A stretch of DNA of 64,000 nt from NCBI RefSeq assembly GCF_030684315.1, contig NC_081356.1:132792933-132856932 (forward strand), given 5' to 3'. Below the pieces are notes generated by a model. That model ran no database searches. It saw only the letters and a program-made list of their open reading frames with translations, and was not told where the DNA came from. Every line of letters starts with the position of its first letter. The stretch's first letter is position 1. The position numbers and the translations under genes were made by a program. This document shows, piece after piece, positions 7,736 to 64,000 of this stretch. The DNA is from Stegostoma tigrinum. Its lineage: Eukaryota.

Positions 7736-8030
7736 AGCGAGTTTTGAGAAGATTTGTAGCTCAGGTTGAGGTCCTGGATGTGAGTTTGCTCGCTGAGCTG
7801 GAAGGTTAGTTTTCAGACGTTTTGTCACCATTCTAGGTAACATCATCAGTGAGACTCCGGTGAAGCGCTGGTGTTATGTCCCGCTTTCTATTTATCTGTT
7901 AACCTAAACAGATAAATAGAAAGTGGGACATAACACCAGCGCTTCACCGGAGGCTCACTGATGATGTTACCTAGAATGGTGGCGACATGTCTGAAAACTA
8001 ACCTTCCAGCTCAGCGAGTAAACTCACATC
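7736..8030. mobile_element. Palindromic non-autonomous Penelope-like insertion (family B) with 13-bp TSD
   Basis: About 125-bp inverted arms (7777-7900 and 7906-8030) and a 41-nt one-sided tail at 7736-7776. TSD CATAAATTTGTAT at 7723-7735 and 8031-8043. Each arm has a degenerate CTGATGA...GAAACGTC hammerhead core. Confidence 0.85.
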
Positions 8031-8049
8031 CATAAATTTGTATTTTTTT

Positions 8050-9737: not shown

Positions 9738-10758
9738 TCCCTCCAAATATTTCTTATTTATGTACATATCTAAATGTCTTTTAAACTTTGTAACTGTACT
9801 CGCATCCACTGGAAGTCCCTTCCACACACAAACCACTCACTGTGTAAAAAAAAACTTGTCCCTCATTTCTTCTTAAAATCTTTCTCTCACCTTAGAAATA
9901 TTCCACTTAGTCTTGAAGTCTTCCACTCTAGGGAATATACACCAGCCATTCGCCTTATCTGTACCATTAATGATTTTATAAACCTCAATGAGGTCACCCT
10001 GCAACCTCCTACACTTCATTGAACAAAGGCCCAGCTCATCCAGCCTTTCCCCATAACTCAAACCCAGCCACACCCTGGTAAATCTCTTCTGGATTCTCCC
10101 CAGCTTAATAATATCCTTCTTATTAACAGGGCAACTAGAACTGCACACAGTACTCCAGAAGAGGCCTCACAAATATCTGTACAATCTCAACTCCTCTACT
10201 CAAAGATTTGATCAATGAAGACAAGAATGATAAATGCCTTCTTAACTACCCTATTTATATGTGGTGCAAATTTCAAAGAATTATGTACCTAAACCCCCAG
10301 GTACCTGTGTTCTTCAACACTACCCGAGGTGCTACTTTCAATTGCATAAGTTTGTTTTACTGCCCATGTTTTGTTTACTTTTATTTTGTTAGTTTTTATA
10401 AGTAGGATTTTTAAAATTTTAAAAACATGGTTTTTCTTAGATATGTATTGATATTTTTTGATGGCCGGAACCTATCCAAATGACTGTCATTATAAAATAT
10501 GCTTTCCATTTGGGAATTTGCCCGTTGAGAGATTTTCCAAGAATGTAACTCTCCTTGAGCTGTAAGACTCTGTTGTACTCTTCTTTATCCCATTTATCCC
10601 CTCGCTGTGTGTCTTTGCCTGCATTACTCTTTCCTGTCCCACATAATTCCTTGCTCTGTGTCCTTCTCTGTATTACTGTTCCCTGTCCCACTCATTGCCT
10701 CAGTCTGTGTCCTTGTCTGTGTTCCCTATCCCACTCACTGTCCTGGTTTACTCTTCAG

Positions 10759-11504
10759 AGACAATGCAGACTCACCGGCGAAAGCCAAAACATCTGGCAA
10801 GAGGAAAGCCAAGAAGCGCACAATAGCAGAAACATCGAATGTCATCACAGAAACCCTGCCATCCATCCAAGAAACGGATACCGTAGAAATTGACCAGGAG
10901 AATGTTTTTGCTGCGGAGATCGTGGAGATCAACGCAGAAGAGATAGAAGAGGAGGCTAGGGCTACTGTGATGGAAGCAGTGGAGAACCTGCCAACAGCAG
11001 ATGAGTCAGCACAGCCATCTGGTGATGTGACAGGCTCGGAACAACCGGCCGAATCAGCACTTGCTCTTCTCGCCGATATCACCAGCAAATACCAACAGGA
11101 TGAGCTGGACAAGGAGCTGGAGAAGGAAGGGGAACGGGAGTCTGCAGGCCAGTCCCAGGAGGAGTCCGAAACATCCATTGTAACAGAGGATGGGATCCAC
11201 ATCGTGGAAGTGCTGGCACAGGGTGACAAACTGTTCTGTTGTGAGAAATGCAGCCGCTCCTTTAGACTCTTTTACCACTTCAAGGAGCACCTGAAGGTGC
11301 ACTCGGGGGAGAACTATGTATGCCACCTTTGCAGCAAACAGTACACACGGGAGAGCGCCTGGAAGCAGCACCTCTCCTCTCACCGAGAAGAGGAAGGTGG
11401 GAACAAGAAACCAAGGTGTGTTCGCAAAGTGCATGTGTGTCAGTACTGTGAGAAACAGTTTGACCACTTTGGACATTTTAAAGAACATCTTCGAAAGCAC
11501 ACAG
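10759..11504 (+). CDS. ZNF131: ZNF131 large coding exon (basic NLS-like segment, acidic linker, zinc fingers 1-3)
   Basis: ctcttcag acceptor and G|gtaaga donor; 746 nt, phase 2-1. Contains KAKKRTIAETSNVITETLPS, SALALLADITSKY and CQYCEKQFDHFGHFKEHLRKHTG. Confidence 0.96.
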
Positions 11505-12239
11505 GTAAGAAGTGTCATCAATACTGTGCCTTTGCCCTCCAAGATCTTACTGTTATCCTCAGATCATTGAATGATACAAGACAGAAGGTGGCCATTGGGC
11601 TCATTGCGTCGGTGCTGGCTCTTTGAAATATTTGTCCTGGTGTCCTCTCCTGAAAAATCTTCTAATTTGAGTATTTATCCATTTCTGTCTTGAAACTTAT
11701 TATCAAGTCTGCTTCCACTGTATTTTCAGGAAGTGCATTCAGATCCTAACAATCAATAAAAATGATATTGCATTAAATCTGTGCCCTCCTTGCTGATTCT
11801 GCTGCTGGTAGAAACAGTTTCTGTTTATTTGCTTGATCAGTTTCTCCTCATCTCTGTCATAAATGGGTAATCATTTATTTTCTAACTGTGAACTCTATTC
11901 CTAAAATTTCTCACAAGAAGAAACAACCTTTCCACATCCTGATTAGTAAGGGGATTGAAGGTTACTGGGAGAAGGCAGGAGAATGGGGCTGAGAAACACA
12001 TTTGCCATGATCAAATGGCAGAGCAGACTAAATGGGCTAAATGACCAAATTCTGCTGCAGTGTCTTATGGTCACATGTAACCTATCATTTATTATTTTGT
12101 TTTGAGGATAGCAAAGTAACTGCCTGGTATCATTCTGGTTTCTGGATAGGAGAACATGGTATTTGGATTGATTCATTTCACAGATGTGTCCAAAGCCTTG
12201 GAGCAATGAATGGTGAAATCTACTCTTTTACTTCCTCAG

Positions 12240-12370
12240 GTGAGAAGCCCTTCGAGTGTCCAAACTGTCATGAGCGATTTGCCAGGAATAGCACACTGAA
12301 ATGTCACCTGGTGGCCTGCCGAACGGGTATGGGTGCAAAGAAAGGAAGGAAGAAGATGTACGAGTGTCAG
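12240..12370 (+). CDS. ZNF131: ZNF131 coding exon (zinc finger 4 and start of finger 5)
   Basis: cttcctcag acceptor and CAG|gtacag donor; 131 nt, phase 1-0. Reads GEKPFECPNCHERFARNSTLKCHLVACRTGMGAKKGRKKMYECQ. Confidence 0.96.
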
Positions 12371-13129
12371 GTACAGAGTATTGAGCAACACAGCCCACCC
12401 ATTTCCCAAAGGCCCACAGAGACACAGCAGATTGCATTCTTACAGCCCCTCATGGGTAACAAAACATCCCAATGTGCTCCTTTGGGATGTTACAAAACAA
12501 AATATACAGTATCTGGTGAAATTAGAATAGAAGGCCAAAAGTTTGGCCACATTTTCCGGAGACTCTTATAGAAAGGTATGATAGGTGGAGAGGTTGAGGG
12601 CTTTGAATTCTGACCCTAGTGCTCAGTCAGATACAGGCTTGGCTATCAATGCTGGAGGAGTTCAAATTAGATACAACAGAGATCAGAATGACCAGGAACC
12701 AGAATCAGAGAAACATTGCAATCTGTTCGAGCTAGAGAAAGATACAGCGTCGGAGGAGTGAGTCTACAGACAGAATTGGAAACAACAATGAAGCGTGTTA
12801 GGTGTTACCTATAATTATATGCCATGATGGGTCATGAATTTTGGGAAATTATTTATTGCGCTTTTAAACATACTCTATAGCCAATGTCATGAGTTGCAAA
12901 ATTAGACATTTTGTTATTGTATGACAGTTGGAGGTTCAGAAAGCAGGGCAATATTCTACAGCAGATTAAACCATGATGTCCCAATGCATTTCTGCACCCG
13001 GTCTGCTTCAGCTTTTTATGTTTGGACAGTGATGAGGCCACGTAGGCAAGAGTCGTTTCCAAGATAACGCTTGGGTATTCTGGTTCGGGGGGTGACACTG
13101 CTAACTCCACTTGTTATTTTCAATCCCAG

Positions 13130-13384
13130 GTTTGCTCCAGCGTCTTCCCCAGCTGGGACCAGTTTAAGAATCACCTGGCAGTTCACACAGGCGAGAAACC
13201 CAATCACTGCACCATTTGCGACATGTGGTTCATGCGGGCTAGCGAGCTGCGGCAACATGTCAAGGATGTCCATGGAGCTGCTGAGCAGGAAGTGGGCGAG
13301 GTGACGGAAATTGTGGTGCCCGTGGAGGTGATTGACACTGAGGCGATGGAGGGGGAGACTATCATTGAGCAGGTGACTGCGTAG
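13130..13384 (+). CDS. ZNF131: ZNF131 probable last coding exon (fingers 5-6 and short acidic tail, TAG stop)
   Basis: aatcccag acceptor. Reads VCSSVFPSWDQFKNHLAVHTGEKPNHCTICDMWFMRASELRQHVKDVH...ETIIEQVTA*. It is absent from the ORF track in this frame. Confidence 0.9.
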   Translation, partial: VCSSVFPSWDQFKNHLAVHTGEKPNHCTICDMWFMRASELRQHVKDVHGAAEQEVGEVTEIVVPVEVIDTEAMEGETIIEQVTA

Positions 13385-14951: not shown

Positions 14952-15185
14952 TTGAGAGAGATAATGGGAACTGCAGATGCTGGAGATTCCAAGATAATAA
15001 AATGTGAGGCTGGATGAACACAGCAGGCCAAGCAGCATCTCAGGAGCACAAAAGCTGACGTTTCGGGCCTAGACCCTTCATCAGAGAGACTCTCTGATGA
15101 AGGGTCTAGGCCCGAAACGTCAGCTTTTGTGCTCCTGAGATGCTGCTTGGCCTGCTGTGTTCATCCAGCCTCACATTTTATTATC
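14952..15185. mobile_element. Perfect 96-bp-arm palindrome from the Penelope-like 3' end (family A), with tail and 11-bp TSD
   Basis: Arms 14993-15088 and 15090-15185 with a 1-nt spacer; tail 14960-14992. ACTAAATATAT at 14941-14951 and 15186-15196. Confidence 0.92.
15094..15121 (+). ncRNA. Minimal type I hammerhead ribozyme core (mirror copy at 15057-15084 on the minus strand)
   Basis: CTGATGA-A-GGGTCTAGGCCC-GAAACGTC contains the CUGANGA and GAAA boxes, stem II, a palindromic ACGT stem III and a GUC cleavage triplet. Stem I is only about 2 bp. Confidence 0.7.
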
Positions 15186-40730: not shown

Positions 40731-41175
40731 AAAAGTAAGGTCACCATTGTGCCACTCTTGCGCTGGTGAGGGATAACTGGTGGTGGTTTAACTTAAGGTT
40801 TATCATGCCTTGGACGAGGGACAAGGTTGAGAAGGTAGGAGCTTCATGGCAACCTTGGTGTGGAACATGAATCTGTGCTCTTGGCATCCAACTAACTGAG
40901 CTAATCAACCGCTGGAGGAATCTCTACTGTGTATTGAAATGACATGTTGCACCAGCTCTTGGCTCGTTGATGCTGGCTCTGAAATAGAAAATGTTGCCTC
41001 TACTGTTATAGTTTATTGAAGCTGATGCAGCATCTTTTGTCCTCTGCAGAAGATGTGGTTGGTGCCTCAGTTTTCTTATAGATTTATAAACATATCTGCT
41101 CCTGCTAAACAAGCATGGACTTCCCACTTACTCTTCTATGGATTGAGATTGTTTAGTATTTTGTGGGGGTTTTCA

Positions 41176-41209
41176 GAGGAAGTACAGAAACATTTGAAGT
41201 AACTTCTCT
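41176..41209 (+). promoter_or_regulatory. Putative proximal promoter of Siglec-15-like gene 1 (ETS/PU.1-type site and conserved 15-mer)
   Basis: GAGGAAGT at 41176-41183. TGAAGTAACTTCTCT at 41195-41209 is identical to 60417-60431 upstream of the paralogous leader exon. Confidence 0.55.
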
Positions 41210-41259
41210 CATTCAATGTCAAAAGGCGAGAAGCAGCCAGTGAGAAAGGTGAATGACCG

Positions 41260-41323
41260 ATGATAAGTCCTGTCTACATTTGGCTTTCCACAATCCTGCT
41301 GTCAGTCTCAGTGCAGGGTTCTA
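41260..41323 (+). CDS. Signal-peptide exon of Siglec-15-like gene 1
   Basis: Reads MISPVYIWLSTILLSVSVQGS then A|gtcagt, a phase-1 donor compatible with the exon at 47764. Homologous to 60493-60550. Confidence 0.75.
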
Positions 41324-42149
41324 GTCAGTGTTTTCCTACGCTAACTGATCAAATTTGTTTTGTTAACGTGTAATTGCTGTTTTCATGATCTGCTAACTTA
41401 ATTATAGTGACCAAAGCCTTGTGTTAACCAACACTAGGTGTCATGGTCTTCACTGAGTTTCTAAACTGGAAGAAACGTTTGCCTTACCAACGCACATCAA
41501 AACAGGGTACAATTATTTAACTAAAACCACTAAACCAATACTGCACGAGCATCAAGTCAGGCAGCACAAAAAGGAACATAGGAAATGAGAACAGGAGTAC
41601 GCCAACTAAATCTTCAGCCTGCTCTGCCAACTAATATGATCATGGCTGATCGTCTAACTCGATACTTTCTTGCCCTTTAGCTCTAAGAACTATATCTATA
41701 AGCTTCTTGAAAACATTCTATGTTTTGGCACTAACTACTTTCTGTGGCAGAGAATTCCACAGTCTCACCACTCTCTGGGTGAAGAAATTTCTCCTCAACT
41801 CAGTCGTAAATTATCTACCCCATATCCTCATACTGTGACCTAAAGTGATGAGGGCACTCAAACTGTGACGGGTGAAAAACATGCTTCAGTCACAGCCAGG
41901 CTTCAGAGAGAGACAGAGAGAGACATGCTAACTTGTTGGATGTACATGAAAATCCAAACCTGCTGTTTCATCTAAATGAATGCTGCTGTCAGGCTCACCA
42001 TTCAGATTTATTGAATGATATATAATTGCTGTTTCTATGAGGCAAATACAAACTAAATCCATCACAGAAAATAGGGACACAGCATACTTCAGTAAAGGAG
42101 GTTGGGGTTGTATTCCTTGAAACTGAGAAGGCTGAGGGGTGACACGGTT

Positions 42150-47763: not shown

Positions 47764-48144
47764 ATTTTTCTGCTCATGATTGGTCAATGACAGTCGCAGA
47801 TGGTGTGAGGGCTGAGAAAGGATTTGCTGTTTTACCCTGCAGCTTCACCCACCCAGACACTAATGTGACACTCACTAGCTCCATGATATGGATTAAATCT
47901 AACAAAGGTGTTATCTTTAACTGTACATATTCTAGTCCAGGCCATTCTCAGGGTGAGCTATGTGAGAATGTGATACAGCTGGACAGTGGGAATCAATTTA
48001 GTTTGGTGGGGAACTTCAGCAACAAAGACGTTTCAATAATGATGGGCGGACTGAGCCAGGAGGATGCTGGTCTTTATCAGTGTCGAGTGGAGCTCAATAT
48101 TAACAGTTTTCAGACACAACATTGCGTAAAGCTGGAAGTGGAAG
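47764..48144 (+). CDS. Ig V-set exon, Siglec-15-like domain 1
   Basis: Polypyrimidine-cacag acceptor and G|gtgagg donor; 381 nt, phase 1-1. WSMTV..VRAEKGFAVLPCSFTHP, IW, IFNC...ELC, FSLVGN..NKDVSI and DAGLYQCRVE resemble Siglec-15 (WSMQVP..AVLPCTFTHP, ELC, FRLLGN, YFCRVE). Confidence 0.9.
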
Positions 48145-49343: not shown

Positions 49344-49686
49344 CTGCTTGGGGAAATACCTCAGTGGTGAGAAGGCCAGAGGGAGATTCAATTACTTTAC
49401 CCTGTGTCTTCATGACCAGAGACTCCAACACCCTGACCATTGTTACCTGGATGAGGAAGGAGCCCTACGAACATATTGTTACATTTTCAGCCCAATCACT
49501 GGGAACTTGGACAATTGTAAATGGTGGAAATTGAGCTCATCGGGAACCCAGAGGAGGGAAATACCTCGACCAGGATAAACCAGCTGAGTGTGAGGGACAA
49601 TCACACTTACCTGTGTCAGACGGAAGACAGATCAAGACTCAATTTTCAGCACCTGATCCAGAAAGAGACACAGCTACAGGCATATG
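49344..49686 (+). pseudogene. Second Ig V-set exon of the same gene, frameshifted near 49530
   Basis: tttaccttag acceptor and G|gtaaga donor; 343 nt, not a multiple of 3. First frame: EGDSITLPCVF...TWMRKEPY...NGGN*. Second frame: ELIGNPEEGNTSTRINQLSVRDNHTYLC...ETQLQAY. Confidence 0.82.
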
Positions 49687-50375
49687 GTAAGAAACTGTTT
49701 ACATATTCTTCAATTTGTAAACAGTGTACAGTGAGAGTGTAACAGATTCTGTGAACTTCTTCCAATTTGATTTTCTGGTTAAAGGACATTAGCCTAGGTT
49801 CTCCTCACAGGTGTTTTCTGGCCAGCTGAGTATTTGAAGCAATTTGATTTTTATTTCAAATTTCTAGCATCTGCGGTATTTTGCTTTTGTGTTTGAAGTT
49901 TGATTTTTAAAATATTTAATATAATTTGATGTGCTGATCCTTTCAGGTGCATCTTTATGTTCGTAATAAAAGACATTGATACACTCAGAACATTCAGTTC
50001 AATCTCCAAACAACCCAAAGTTACATTGACTTTAAGATCATCGCTTTGAGCAGGAAGGTGCAACAGTCTAATGTGTCCGTCCTGGTTACAATGAAAGTGT
50101 TCACAGTTTCATCAGAAATAGTCCCTTCAGTGCAAGTATATCCCCCAGTGTCCATCTGACTGTGTGAGGCATCACAGCCATGTGGGACCCATCTGAGCCC
50201 TACATTCACATGTGGATTAGCAGCAGGGAGCAGGAATTCTGAGGAGGAAACACGATTGCCAATTCCTACTCAAACCTGATGCAGGAGCTAAAAGCTGCTC
50301 TTACTGTTTTCCAAGCTAAGACTGGGTGAGTCAGCACCAGATTCAGGAAATACCCTGTGGGTTAATTTAAAACAT

Positions 50376-51165
50376 AAGACCATAAAACATAGGAGTGGAA
50401 GTAAAGCCATTTGGCCCATCAAATCAACTCCGCCATTTAAATCATGGCTGATGGGCATTTCAACACCACTTCCCTGCACTCTCCCTGTAGCCCTTGATTC
50501 CTTGTGAGATCAAGAATTTATCAATCTCTGGTTTGAAGGCATCTAACGTCCTGGCCTCCACTGCACTCCGTGGCAATGAATTCCACAAGCCCACCACTCT
50601 CTGGCTGAAGAAATGTCATCTCATTTCTGTTTTAAATTTACCCCCTCTAATTCTAAGGCTGTGCCCATGGGTCCTAGTCTCCCCGCCTAATAGAAACAAC
50701 TTCCTAGATTCCACCCTTTCTAAGCCATTCATTATCTTGTAAGTTTCTATTAGATCGCCCCTCAACCTTCTAAACTCTAATGAGTACAATCCCAGGATCC
50801 TTAGCCATTCATCATACGTTAAACCTACCATTCCAGGGATCATCCGTGTGAATCTCCGCTGGACACGGTCCGGGGCTAGTATGTCCTTCCTGAGGTGTGG
50901 CGCCCAAAATTGGACACAGTATTCTAAATGGGGCCTAACTACAGCTTTATAAAGTCTCAGAAGCACATCGCTGCTTTTATATTCCAACCCTCTTGAGATA
51001 AACAACAACATTACATTCACTCTCTTAATCATGGGCTCTACCTGCAAGTTAACTTTTAGAGAATCCTGGACCAACACTCCCAGATCCCTTTGTACTTCTG
51101 CTTTACGAATTTTCTCACCATTTAGAAAATAGTCCATGCCTGTATTCTTTTTTCCAAAGTGCAAT
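50376..51165 (-). mobile_element. CR1 LINE 3' fragment
   Basis: ORF 50616-51185 contains VRPHLEYCVQFWAP and LYSLEFRRLRGDLI. Confidence 0.9.
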
Positions 51166-54484: not shown

Positions 54485-54586
54485 TGAGGAGGACTGAGCA
54501 CACCACCATATATCAGCTGGTCATCCCACTGCCCAGCTTCCTGCTCATCATCATCATCATCTTCATTACCTTCAGAAAGAAAGGAG
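54485..54586 (+). CDS. Transmembrane exon of Siglec-15-like gene 1
   Basis: ttctgttttacag acceptor and G|gtcagt donor; 102 nt, phase 1-1. Reads VRRTEHTTIYQLVIPLPSFLLIIIIIFITFRKKG: a hydrophobic span followed by a basic stop-transfer sequence. Confidence 0.82.
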
Positions 54587-60085: not shown

Positions 60086-60410
60086 GCCACTGTATCAAAA
60101 TTCTGGAGCTCCTTCACTGCTCTGTCTAAGCACCCTATGGATGTATGTGTGATAATGGGAACTGCAGATGCTGGAGAATCCAAGACAATAAAATGTGAGG
60201 CTGGATGAACACAGCAGGCCCAGCAGCATCTCAGGAACACCTGGGAAAGGGATGTAAATGCTGGTCCAGCCAGCGAATCACTAGAAGAAAGAATCTACTT
60301 TCACCACATTCTGTGGCTTGTACGTTAGTTTTTAAGCAGTTATGCCTGTCATACTTCCCAATTATTGTTCATGTTGTGTACTAGTTTTTAAAGTTTCGTA
60401 ACAGCTACAT

Positions 60411-60431
60411 CGGAAGTGAAGTAACTTCTCT
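60411..60431 (+). promoter_or_regulatory. Putative proximal promoter of paralogue 2 (ETS site overlapping the conserved 15-mer)
   Basis: CGGAAGTGAAGTAACTTCTCT, about 60-80 nt upstream of the ATG at 60493. Confidence 0.55.
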
Positions 60432-60492
60432 GTTCTTGTTTAAATAGACAAGAAGCTGTGTGCAAAAAGGATAAAAGTCGGATGATTTAGCA

Positions 60493-60550
60493 ATGAATTC
60501 TCTCTATGTTTGGCTCTTTGCATCCATGTCAGTCTCAGTGCAGGGTCACA
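60493..60550 (+). CDS. Signal-peptide exon of a second, tandem paralogue (remainder beyond the window)
   Basis: Reads MNSLYVWLFASMSVSVQGH then A|gtaagt, a consensus phase-1 donor. Shares TGTCAGTCTCAGTGCAGGGT and flanking homology with 41260-41323. Confidence 0.75.
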
Positions 60551-61192
60551 GTAAGTACCTTGTAATGTTTACTGTTCAAACTCATTTTTATTAACCGTGC
60601 AATTGTCTCCTTCTTGATGACGTTACCTGCTGATTTAGTTTCAGTTTCCTTGCATTGTCCTTTACTGCGGTCCCAAAATTGAGCAGAAACAGTTTGCTTG
60701 TGAAACAAATACAGCTCACTGAAGGCTAACATGCAGGTTCAGGAAGCTATAAAAAAGATTAACGGAGTGTTAGCTTTTGTTGCAAAATGATTTAAGCACA
60801 GGAGCAGTGAAGTTGTGCTTCAATAGTATAGAAACTCAATAGTCCTGTTTTTAGAATATTGTGTACTGTTTTAATTTTGTTATCTCAGAAAGGATATTTT
60901 TCCAAAGTGGGATTGCAACACAGGTTTCACAGACTTATTCTTGGGTTGGCAGTGCTATGACAATAGACTGGTCAAACTGGGCCTATATTCTGTACAGTTT
61001 CAAAGAATGAGACTTGATCTCAAAAAACCATACAATCACACAGTTCAAAGTTGACCCACTAAGTCTGCACCAACAAAACCTACCCCAAATCTAGACAAGT
61101 CACACTTCCTAGCACTTGGCCAATAGCTTTGAATGTTACAGGATTTCAAATGCTCGTGCTAGTGATTTTCAAAGGTTTTCAGCCTCAACAAT

Positions 61193-61490
61193 GGGGTGGC
61201 ATGTGTCTCAGTAGTTAGCACTGCTGCTTAACAGTGCCAGGGACCTGGGTTTGATTCCACCCTTTGGTAACTGTATTGAGATTGCACATTCTCTCTGTGT
61301 TTGCATCAGTTTCCTTTGGGTTCTCGAGTTTCCTCCCACGGTCCAAAGATGTGTAGATTAGGTGGATTAGCCATGGGAATGCAACGATAGGGTAGGTAGG
61401 CAGGTGGGTTTAGGTTTGGATGGGGTGCTCTTTGGAGGGTTGGTATGGGTTGAATGGCCTGCCTCTGCATTGTAGAGATTCTATGATATC
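61193..61490 (+). mobile_element. HE1-type SINE nested in a minus-strand CR1 fragment
   Basis: tRNA head (GGTTTGATTCC) and conserved core. Confidence 0.85.
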
Positions 61491-62367
61491 TTCCCAGATA
61501 ATGCATTCCAGTTTACTACCAGCTTCTGGGTGAAAATGTTTTCCTTATACTCCCCTCTGAACCTCCTGCCTTACACCTTAAAATTATGCTCCCTTGTATT
61601 TGAATCTTCAACTAGGAAGAACAGTTGCTTCCGATCCACATTGTCCACGCCTGTCACAATCTATCAGGTACCCCCAACAGCATACTCTGCTCCAAAGAAA
61701 ACAACCTGAGTTTATCCAGGCCATCTTTATAGCTAAACTCCTACATCCCAGGCAACATTCTGGTAAATCTGTGCACCGCTTCCACTGCAATCAGATCCAT
61801 CCTATTGTGCAGTGATCAGACCTGCACAGAGTACTCCAATCGAAACTTATAAATTACTTAAAAGGATAGACAGGATGGTGTAGGTAAGATATATAAATCT
61901 GTAGAAAATAGAAGCAGGAGTAGGCTATTTGCCCTTCTCCGCCAGTCAATACGTTTACAATTGATCCTCTATCTCAACGCAATATCCCCACATTCTCTCC
62001 AAATACCTGGATAGCTTTAAGAGCTAAAACTGGATCAATTTCTTTGATTGAACATACGTAGCCTCCTTAGACTTCTCTGGTAGAGAATCTCGCAGGTTGA
62101 CCACCCTCTGAATGAAAAATTGTTTCCTCTTCTCAATCCAAAACGGCCAACCCCATATCCTGAGACTGTGATTCCCCAAACAGGGGAAATATCTTCCCGG
62201 TATCTCATATGTCCAGCTCCTTAATGCTTCAAAGAGATCCCCCCTCATCCTTCTAGCCTCTAATGAATACAGGCCTAGTCAAATCAACCTTTCCTCATTG
62301 GAAAATCCCATCATCTTTGGGGAATCTTGAACCAGGTGACAAAATTGATCAAGAAAGAGATGTTTTA

Positions 62368-64000
62368 TGATTGATTGATTGTCATGCATACCAAAGTACA
62401 AGGAAAAGCTTTGTTCATGAGCTGTACAGGCAGATCATAGTAAGCAACATGGACAGATCTAAAAGATTTCGACAGCGATATGCAGGTTACATTGCACTGG
62501 GTGTGCATCAGGTGAGATCACTGTTAGCAAGATCAATATTACTTGAGTCTAGAGAGTCCATTCATCAGCCCGATAATAGCCAGGAAGGAGCTGTTCCTTG
62601 TGCGTGTGTTCAGGCTTCATATCTTCTGCCTATTGGAGGAGGTTGTAGGAGGACATGACCAGGTTGCACTAGGTCAATTAGTGATGTTGGCCCCTTTTTG
62701 TGGCAGCGAACTGTGTACATGGAGTCCATGTTGGCTTCCATAAAGGTCAGGGCTGCACACATCACCTTCTGAAGTTTCTTATAGTCCTGGGCAAAGCTGA
62801 TGTCGTACCAGGCCAGACAGTATGCATTCAACGGTGTGTCTATACAAGCTGGTGAAGGTCCTTATGGACATGCAAAATTTCCTGAGCCGCCTGAGGAAGA
62901 AGGTGCATTGTTGTGCCTTCTTGACTGTTGCATCTCTGTTGCCAGTCCAGGACAGATTCTCAGTTATCGTCACTCTGAGCAACTTGTCGCTCTCTACCCT
63001 TTCAACCTCAGTTTCATTGATGTAGATGGGGATATGTTCTGCTCCTTTCTTTCTGAAGCCAGTGATCAGTTCTTTAGTTTTTCCAATGTTGAGAGAGAGG
63101 TTGTTTTCATTGCACCACAACACCAAGCTTCTAACTCCATTCTGTATTTTGAGCCATCGTTGTTAAATATCTGTCCCACTACGGTGGTGTCATCAGTGAA
63201 CTTGCAGATGGTGTTTGTTTTGAATGCAGCAACACAGTGATGCATGTGTGAGGAGTACAGGAGGGGCTGTGGGCACATTCTTGTGGTGCTCCAGTTTGAG
63301 TGTTATTGTGGAGGAAAGTTTCCCTGACTGTGGTCTGCGGGTCAGAAAGCTGAGGACCCACTTGCAGAGGGATGAGCCGAGACCAAGGTTGTGGAATTTT
63401 GAAATCAGCCTGGAGGGTCACATGGTGTAGAAGGAGGAACTGTAGTCAATGGGTGGGAGTCTGATGTTGGTGTCTTTGTTGTCCCAAATGTTCCAGGGAT
63501 GACTGTAGGCCTGGTGATACGTCATCCACTTTTGACCTGTTCCATTGTTAGGCAAACTCTAGGGGATCGAGGCAGACTGAGTTGATGTGGGCCATGGCCA
63601 ACCTCTTGAAGCACTTCATGATAATTGAGGACAGAACTACTGGGCAATAGTCATTAAGGCACACTGCATGTGTTTTCTTGGGTATGGGAATGACAGTGGT
63701 CTTCTTGAAGCATGTGGGGACTTTGGCTTGTAGGAGGGAGAGATTGAAGGTGTCAGTGAATACCTCCTCCAGTTGGTCCACATGGGATCTGAGTGCTCAT
63801 CCGGGCCTGTCGCTCTCCTTGGGCTGACTCGAAGGAAAGCTGATCTGACATCTGCAGCAGCGATGGACAGAACAGATGTGCCTGGGGCTATCAGGTCAAG
63901 CATCACCACGCTGCTGGCATTCTGCTCAAACTGATCATAGAAAGCATCGAGTGTGTCAGGGAAGGATGTGTCTTTGTCCGTTATCTTGCTCTGCTTCATT
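62368..64000 (-). mobile_element. Rex1/Babar-like LINE RT fragment, running off the window end
   Basis: [43 protein letters not shown] and NNLSLNIGKTKEL. Confidence 0.85.

Follow-up and report, generated by a model that had tools for sequence, protein, structure and literature searches.

The window analysed here, that is, the whole stretch of 64,000 nucleotides of Stegostoma tigrinum DNA (contig C3, 132792933-132856932), contains a damaged receptor gene and the start of a second receptor gene that runs on past its end. The former and latter are referred to as gene 1 and gene 2 hereafter, and their two immunoglobulin-type domains as V1 and V2. The features of both genes, of their neighbour and of two further genes of the array are as follows (numbers above 64000 are window coordinates extended into the 400 kb downstream):

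10559..13384, + strand: exons of a C2H2 zinc-finger gene, the neighbour of the array
41054..41259, + strand: promoter and 5′ UTR of gene 1, placed by alignment and motif offsets
near 41120 and 41178 (GAGGAAGT), + strand: ETS-type cores of gene 1, placed by motif offsets
41260..41323, + strand: leader exon of gene 1, coding part MISPVYIWLSTILLSVSVQGS, phase-1 donor A/gtcagt
47764..48144, + strand: V1 exon of gene 1, open, Siglec-15-like, with YQCRVEL and its arginine present
49344..49686, + strand: V2 exon of gene 1, 343 bases, frameshift near 49530 and stop at 49532-49534
54485..54586, + strand: membrane exon of gene 1, uncharged
60312..60492, + strand: promoter and 5′ UTR of gene 2, aligned to gene 1 and seven other leader copies
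near 60354 (ACTTCC) and 60412 (CGGAAGTG), + strand: ETS-type cores of gene 2, placed by motif offsets
60493..60550, + strand: leader exon of gene 2, coding part MNSLYVWLFASMSVSVQGH, phase-1 donor A/gtaagt
60551..64000, + strand: start of the first intron of gene 2
74966-75349, + strand: V1 exon of gene 2, with HRCRVEL, Siglec-15-like by sequence and fold matches
83209-83559, + strand: V2 exon of gene 2
90573-90683, + strand: membrane exon of gene 2, uncharged
to about 110300, + strand: six tail exons of gene 2, encoding SFYVEI, CTYANI and VTYAAI
189916 to about 225760: four-domain gene, short tail without tyrosine
341475-371631: gene 6, with a tail like that of gene 2

The leader exons at 60493-60550 and 41260-41323 are paralogues. 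In a local alignment of 60200-60900 with 40950-41700, the regions 60312-60697 and 41054-41482 are identical in 265 of 356 aligned columns (74%), the coding parts being 58 bases long in gene 2 and 64 in gene 1. The 400-bp tiles containing the gene 1 leader gave scores of 117 and 110 with a 250-bp query from the gene 2 leader, while the remaining tiles of the window, taken on both strands, scored 24 ± 4 on average and 51 at most. The first-pass annotation had noticed the homology of 60411-60650 with 41176-41400, the leader peptides MNSLYVWLFASMSVSVQGH and MISPVYIWLSTILLSVSVQGS and the phase-1 donors, and all of these were reproduced; the likeness does run from the promoter to the start of the intron, as it had stated, but is about 100 bp longer on the upstream side. 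Each of the two promoters has two ETS-type cores at matching offsets from the ATG: an inverted one at about −140 and a direct one at about −81. The inverted core is discernible in most of the nine aligned leader copies. We read these motifs as putative PU.1/ETS sites that would make this a leukocyte promoter.

Repeats are abundant in the window, with one copy at 60149-60240, and the shared leader might therefore be taken for a repeat or a chance likeness that forms no part of a gene. This explanation can be practically dismissed. The leader copies, eight in the 464 kb read and one in the 200 kb read upstream, all lie at family loci, and a genome-wide DNA search with the leader gave at least three matches, every one of them inside the cluster. 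Moreover, the gene 2 leader is the exact N-terminus of the NCBI models P0006 and P0007 (LOC125449501), and the exons downstream of it are open and spliced. The first-pass annotation had itself raised the possibilities of a high-copy repeat and of a leader followed by no V-set exon; the copies number nine in the DNA read, and a V exon lies 11 kb beyond the window end.

Gene 2 is an intact, spliced gene, annotated by NCBI as LOC125449501 under the name "uncharacterized", and two database proteins of this Stegostoma tigrinum locus are identical to its V1. It consists of a leader, V1, V2, an uncharged membrane segment and a tail that contains three tyrosine motifs: SFYVEI and VTYAAI, which fit the ITIM consensus, and CTYANI. 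The join of V1 to V2 across a GT..AG intron was found in contigs of two of three small runs. Judging from this layout, the product is likely to be an inhibitory immune receptor.

Gene 1 is likely a decaying copy. The possibility that the frameshift in its V2 exon is an assembly error finds no support: the contigs of all four runs agree with the assembly, with no differences at the site, these runs coming from a single study with at most two samples, among which the assembled animal may be included. Searches with tblastn, blastn and nhmmer revealed no tail exons between the membrane exon and the gene 2 leader, and no RNA dataset is listed as containing the V1-V2 stretch. Skipping of the broken V2 exon would still leave leader, V1 and membrane exons that fit together in a common phase (phase 1), and gene 1 might then be alive as a one-domain tailless decoy. 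Such a product, which we regard as rather unlikely, would accord with the open V1 and membrane exons, the GT/AG splice sites, the presence of both ETS cores and the existence of V2-skipped models among the relatives (P0039, P0040 and P0063). The dN/dS of its V1 (0.41-0.49 in comparisons with four other V1 exons) also resembles that of intact paralogues; however, a pairwise ratio over an old divergence (dS of about 0.4-0.5) is blind to recent loss. In addition to the missing tail exons, the searches made found no database model identical to the gene 1 V1. The segment at 50100-50400 was rejected as a candidate C2 exon; it has stops in all frames, as do its paralogues, and is a conserved intron.

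The cluster extends over some 330 kb of the 464 kb read and comprises eight leaders, three genes with open exons (gene 2, the four-domain gene and gene 6) and debris. The leaders are at 41260, 60493, 116435, 153464, 179291, 189916, 306590 and 341475, and the other exons include six full V1 exons and one inverted V1 fragment, six full V2 exons and one V2 fragment, and five membrane exons. The downstream exons and the count of paralogues thus confirm the head-to-tail receptor array that had been predicted to start in the window. The regular spacing of about 19 kb predicted with it holds for the first interval only: the successive intervals are 19.2, 55.9, 37.0, 25.8, 10.6, 116.7 and 34.9 kb. Turnover by birth and death, another early suggestion, is plainly seen in the frameshifted gene 1, in orphan leaders and in fragments; the V1 at 268 kb and the V2 at 280 kb carry frameshifts, the leader at 306590 has a stop and a dead donor, and orphan tail exons lie at 315-333 kb. 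The V1 exons show dS of 0.15-0.53 and dN/dS of 0.29-0.76 in 10 pairs, and most of the duplications are therefore old. The tracts 102495-102674 and 367115-367294, which cover the first tyrosine-motif exon of genes 2 and 6, are identical over 180 bases, although they are 265 kb apart and the surrounding aligned block is only about 82% alike. This identity suggests that recent gene conversion between genes 2 and 6 is likely there. Inspection of the tails for inhibitory motifs, as had been advised, gave the ITIM-consensus SFYVEI and VTYAAI in gene 6 as well as in gene 2. The orphan leaders at 116435, 153464 and 179291, which keep GT donors and lie upstream of the four-domain gene, could serve as alternative first exons.

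The first-pass annotation had given the family no name. V1 is a V-set domain in Pfam, and three lines of comparison point to Siglec-15. One is sequence: the best PDB match of the gene 2 V1 is human Siglec-15 (E 6.8e-18; the next, CD33, 1.4e-8), as is that of the gene 1 V1 (E 2.7e-10), and conversely bird Siglec-15 finds its best match in the S. tigrinum genome in the V1 exon of gene 2. Another is fold: the V1 model (pLDDT 82.5) matches 7zoz best (Z 17.7, rmsd 2.0, 118 aligned), while the runner-up among 997 chains reaches Z 14.5. The last is the set of key residues. For the Siglec-15 structure (7ZOZ), PMC10264397 describes the C64-C142 bridge, a C95-C104 bridge termed unique, R143, W44, Y87 and Y154. 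C64, C142, C95, C104, R143 and W44 all have counterparts in V1 by alignment, the disulfides being predicted, so that the B-F cysteines of the V-set, the extra C′-C″ pair, the F-strand arginine and the N-terminal tryptophan are shared; the arginines of YQCRVEL in gene 1 and HRCRVEL in gene 2 align with R143. Y154 is replaced by F, and a shorter loop leaves Y87 without a counterpart. Thus, as far as sequence and model go, V1 is built like the lectin domain of Siglec-15, at an identity to Siglec-15 proteins of 31-45%.

The second domain is not C2 but a V-type sandwich fold without the arginine, and the membrane exon directly follows it. The best fold matches of the whole-ectodomain model were JAML; V1 was folded separately because the V-V geometry dominated this full-length search. 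In a tree of 68 first-domain rows, the V1 domains of sharks and rays form a clade (support 98 for 26 rows), outside which the Siglec-15-like proteins of bony fish, lungfish, coelacanth and salamanders fall, and tetrapod, lungfish, coelacanth and teleost Siglec-15 form a clade of their own (88-91) without shark rows. These are quick trees of 133-134 columns, in which deep forks stay open and the family is not resolved as the sister of Siglec-15.

The zinc-finger neighbour adjoins the array as first reported; it is probably ZNF131, by comparison with the human protein, the Atlas giving only C2H2 zinc fingers. An HMG-CoA synthase gene lies about 90 kb upstream of the window. Genome-wide protein searches found no family exon at C3:132.20-132.79 Mb, and upstream on the contig the following relatives were found:

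C3:132,151,567: lone broken V1
C3:132,143,245-132,127,453: two-V gene whose membrane exon has a lysine; broken, V1 having frameshifts, V2 a stop and the leader a dead donor
C3:132,014,217-131,999,078: V-V-C2 gene with a lysine membrane segment; all four exons found are open
C3:131,978,405-131,948,538: V-C2 gene; keeps YFCRVE, has no mid-membrane lysine and has one tail tyrosine motif, SKYCKV

A C2 domain after the V domain is a Siglec trait, and among these linked shark genes it occurs only in the V-C2 and V-V-C2 genes. The V-C2 gene bears the database name Siglec-15 in nine other sharks and skates, and apparently shares one chromosome with the two-V family in eight other species. The V1 of the V-V-C2 gene has no arginine and is about 31% identical to that of the cluster. 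A charged membrane residue, which the first-pass annotation had proposed to look for in each gene, is thus missing from the cluster itself, where all five membrane exons are uncharged and no lysine-anchored member is found among them, but present in partners 0.7-0.8 Mb upstream, one of them broken. A degenerate V-exon fragment like the V1 of the V-V-C2 branch was also seen at C3:131,926,820-131,926,980.

Sharks and rays of 22 species yielded 102 records of the family in a profile search whose query was built from lysine-type proteins. Sorted by script, 30 records combine one or more YxxI/L/V motifs with an uncharged membrane segment, 32 contain a membrane lysine, 13 show a membrane segment but no tyrosine motif, and 27 have no membrane segment. 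Five of the 13 have the lysine motif in a variant form and were reassigned manually, which brings the lysine type to 37. Both types occur in the database records of 12 of the 22 species. The horn shark lysine type is 93% (V1) and 96% (V2) identical to the tyrosine type of the same species, and only 57-63% and 70-73%, respectively, to the lysine types of other sharks. In the trees, the two types group together in horn shark (support 98-99) and in skates (a pair from two species; 95-96). In chimaera, the identity between a lysine-type and a tyrosine-tail V-V-C2 protein is 92.9% (350 residues). The paired-receptor character suspected at first sight is supported by these species counts and, in horn shark and chimaera, by near-identical pairs. 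A different state is found in bamboo and epaulette sharks, whose lysine V1 domains are 87% identical to each other and group together (99-100), as against 70-77% to their own inhibitory genes (83-90% for V2), and the lysine types of two rays are 34-49% identical to all others.

S. tigrinum has no near-identical ectodomain pair of the two types: its two-V lysine gene is broken, and its V-V-C2 lysine gene is open. It is conceivable, though on the whole unlikely, that the inhibitory receptors and tailless decoys stand alone and that the lysine genes form a lineage of their own that binds other ligands; the two types would then not pair functionally, and in S. tigrinum least likely of all. The uncharged membrane exons of the cluster, the broken two-V lysine gene, the divergent, arginine-less V1 of the intact lysine gene and the 17 of 32 lysine-type records without Cys-Arg would suit this explanation. 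It does not account, however, for the near-identity, in horn shark and chimaera, of ectodomains whose signalling ends are opposite, nor for the grouping of the two types by lineage in horn shark and skates. Paired inhibitory and activating receptors remain the reading that we follow below.

The arginine is distributed unevenly between the types. Cys-Arg is present in all 26 scorable tyrosine-tail records (4 unscorable; 2 scored manually), as against 15 of the 32 scorable lysine-type records (5 unscorable), and one of the 17 others keeps the arginine and has lost the cysteine; because the records include isoforms and orthologues, these counts are not independent events. The asymmetry fits an escape of activating members from a self ligand, and relaxed selection on dying genes would predict the same pattern.

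A protein or lipid ligand must be weighed here as well. PILR-alpha/beta, CD300, JAML and CD226 are paired or V-V receptors, and PILR also binds sialic acid by an arginine. The shark ectodomains of the cluster resemble theirs in being composed of V-set domains only, the PILR fold score being lower (Z 13.7). The receptors could thus be inhibitory and activating V-V receptors of the CD300, JAML, CD226 or TIM-like kind, in which the Siglec-15 signature persists as an inherited scaffold, sialic-acid binding having been lost. Two V domains without C2, JAML as the first whole-ectodomain match, the Atlas neighbours (MPZL1, TIGIT-like and JAML-like), TIM-3 as the third PDB match of the gene 1 V1 and the missing Y87 counterpart would all agree with this. 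Nevertheless, we consider it quite improbable, because the arginine is kept throughout the scorable tyrosine-tail records while the adjacent loops vary, and V1 alone matches Siglec-15 by 3.2 Z units more than the next chain.

Gene 2 is probably the second gene of a tandem Siglec-15-like cluster, with a likely promoter and signal-peptide exon in the window, and is predicted to encode an inhibitory receptor that binds sialylated glycans. In the proposed mechanism, the ETS sites would drive leukocyte expression of the receptor genes, and V1 would bind sialic acid through its arginine; ligand binding would lead to phosphorylation of the tail and recruitment of SHP-1/SHP-2, by which leukocyte activation would be damped. 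By analogy with known Siglec biology (PMC6288428), the inhibitory receptor would read self sialoglycans, and microbes displaying sialic acid could exploit it. The lysine members, whose tails are very short, would rely on a DAP12-type adaptor for signalling and may act as counter-receptors against such microbes. Gene conversion likely keeps the outer domains of the two types alike in some lineages; in others, the lysine-type outer domains would diverge, often without the arginine, and the lysine copies would be refreshed by conversion and frequently lost.

Mammalian Siglec-15 is a single-copy, lysine-anchored V-C2 protein. The shark family differs from it in its V-V, V-V-V-V and V-V-C2 layouts, many copies and ITIM tails, and the receptor is not SIGLEC15 because it has neither the C2 domain nor the membrane lysine and lies in another genomic neighbourhood. 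The membrane segment PLGxK of the lysine type, on the other hand, resembles that of bird and coelacanth Siglec-15. According to PMC6288428, which names Siglec-15 among the conserved Siglecs, Siglec-5/14 and Siglec-11/16 join inhibitory receptors to lysine-anchored partners, their ectodomains are homogenised by gene conversion, null activating copies are common and the arginine is lost in some members. The shark family is like these in its near-identical pairs, lost activating copies and arginine losses; however, Siglec-5/14 and Siglec-11/16 are CD33-related primate genes, and the shark family derives from a Siglec-15-type V domain. We propose, tentatively and at somewhat less than even confidence, that cartilaginous fish may have turned a Siglec-15-type domain into paired sialic-acid receptors long before the mammalian CD33-related pairs and independently of them, and that these receptors replace canonical SIGLEC15; the inhibitory members would keep the arginine for self, and the activating members would be re-templated again and again by gene conversion and then shed it, being directed at pathogens.

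If this is true, paired sialic-acid receptors arose at least two times, and the family offers a natural series for the birth of activating counter-receptors by conversion, their loss of self-binding and their death. Siglec-15 itself has been characterised as a single, conserved Siglec of the activating kind that regulates osteoclasts and serves as a target in cancer immunotherapy. No description of the shark family was found in the open literature, and an account in a subscription journal may exist; the whale shark genome paper has one general mention only and the bamboo shark genome paper none. The automatic database names of the family (Siglec-10/12/15, pIgR-like, JAM-like, A33-like and uncharacterized) are unrelated, and membership in a single family is therefore hidden.

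Canonical SIGLEC15 was not detected in the genome: coelacanth and bird queries match the C3 complex best, at 25-39%, and next the more distant arrays. Human SIGLEC15 lies beside SLC14A and near ATP5F1A; in S. tigrinum, contig C1 carries the urea transporters and ATP synthase alpha, and C3 the receptor cluster. No V exon was found in the 200 kb below SLC14A on C1, a stretch that is mostly tandem repeat. This is absence of detection and no proof of loss. The tandem array just below the urea-transporter genes (C1:133.60-133.72 Mb) has a period of about 3981 bases. Two other regions hold V exons. One is C58:6.62-6.66 Mb, with several V exons carrying YFCRV, one of them with a stop, and an uncharged membrane exon; we take it to be PILR-like. 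The other is C53 from 1.6 to 16.8 Mb, with V-exon arrays matched by Siglec-15-type queries in at least 12 places, which we take to be CD22/Siglec-1-like.

The family itself ranges over sharks and rays, and its V-V-C2 branch also includes chimaera. The Siglec-15-type V domain also occurs in Siglec-15-like proteins of bony fish, lungfish, coelacanth and salamander (for zebrafish siglec15l, see bioRxiv 10.64898/2026.08.25.746757), and several of them (P0067, P0070, P0165 and P0181) have tyrosine tails or two V domains. The lungfish protein P0052 is Siglec-15-like with seven V domains, and the Siglec-15-like proteins of newt (P0067), axolotl (P0070) and chimaera (P0204) have repeated V domains or tyrosine tails. 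V-domain multiplication, as read from the predicted proteins, recurs outside sharks. Finally, two inverted structures were seen in the upstream part of the window: a near-perfect palindrome (99.5%) of head-to-head repeat copies at 14993-15185, and a 258-base hairpin-like inverted repeat (93%) at 7775-8032.
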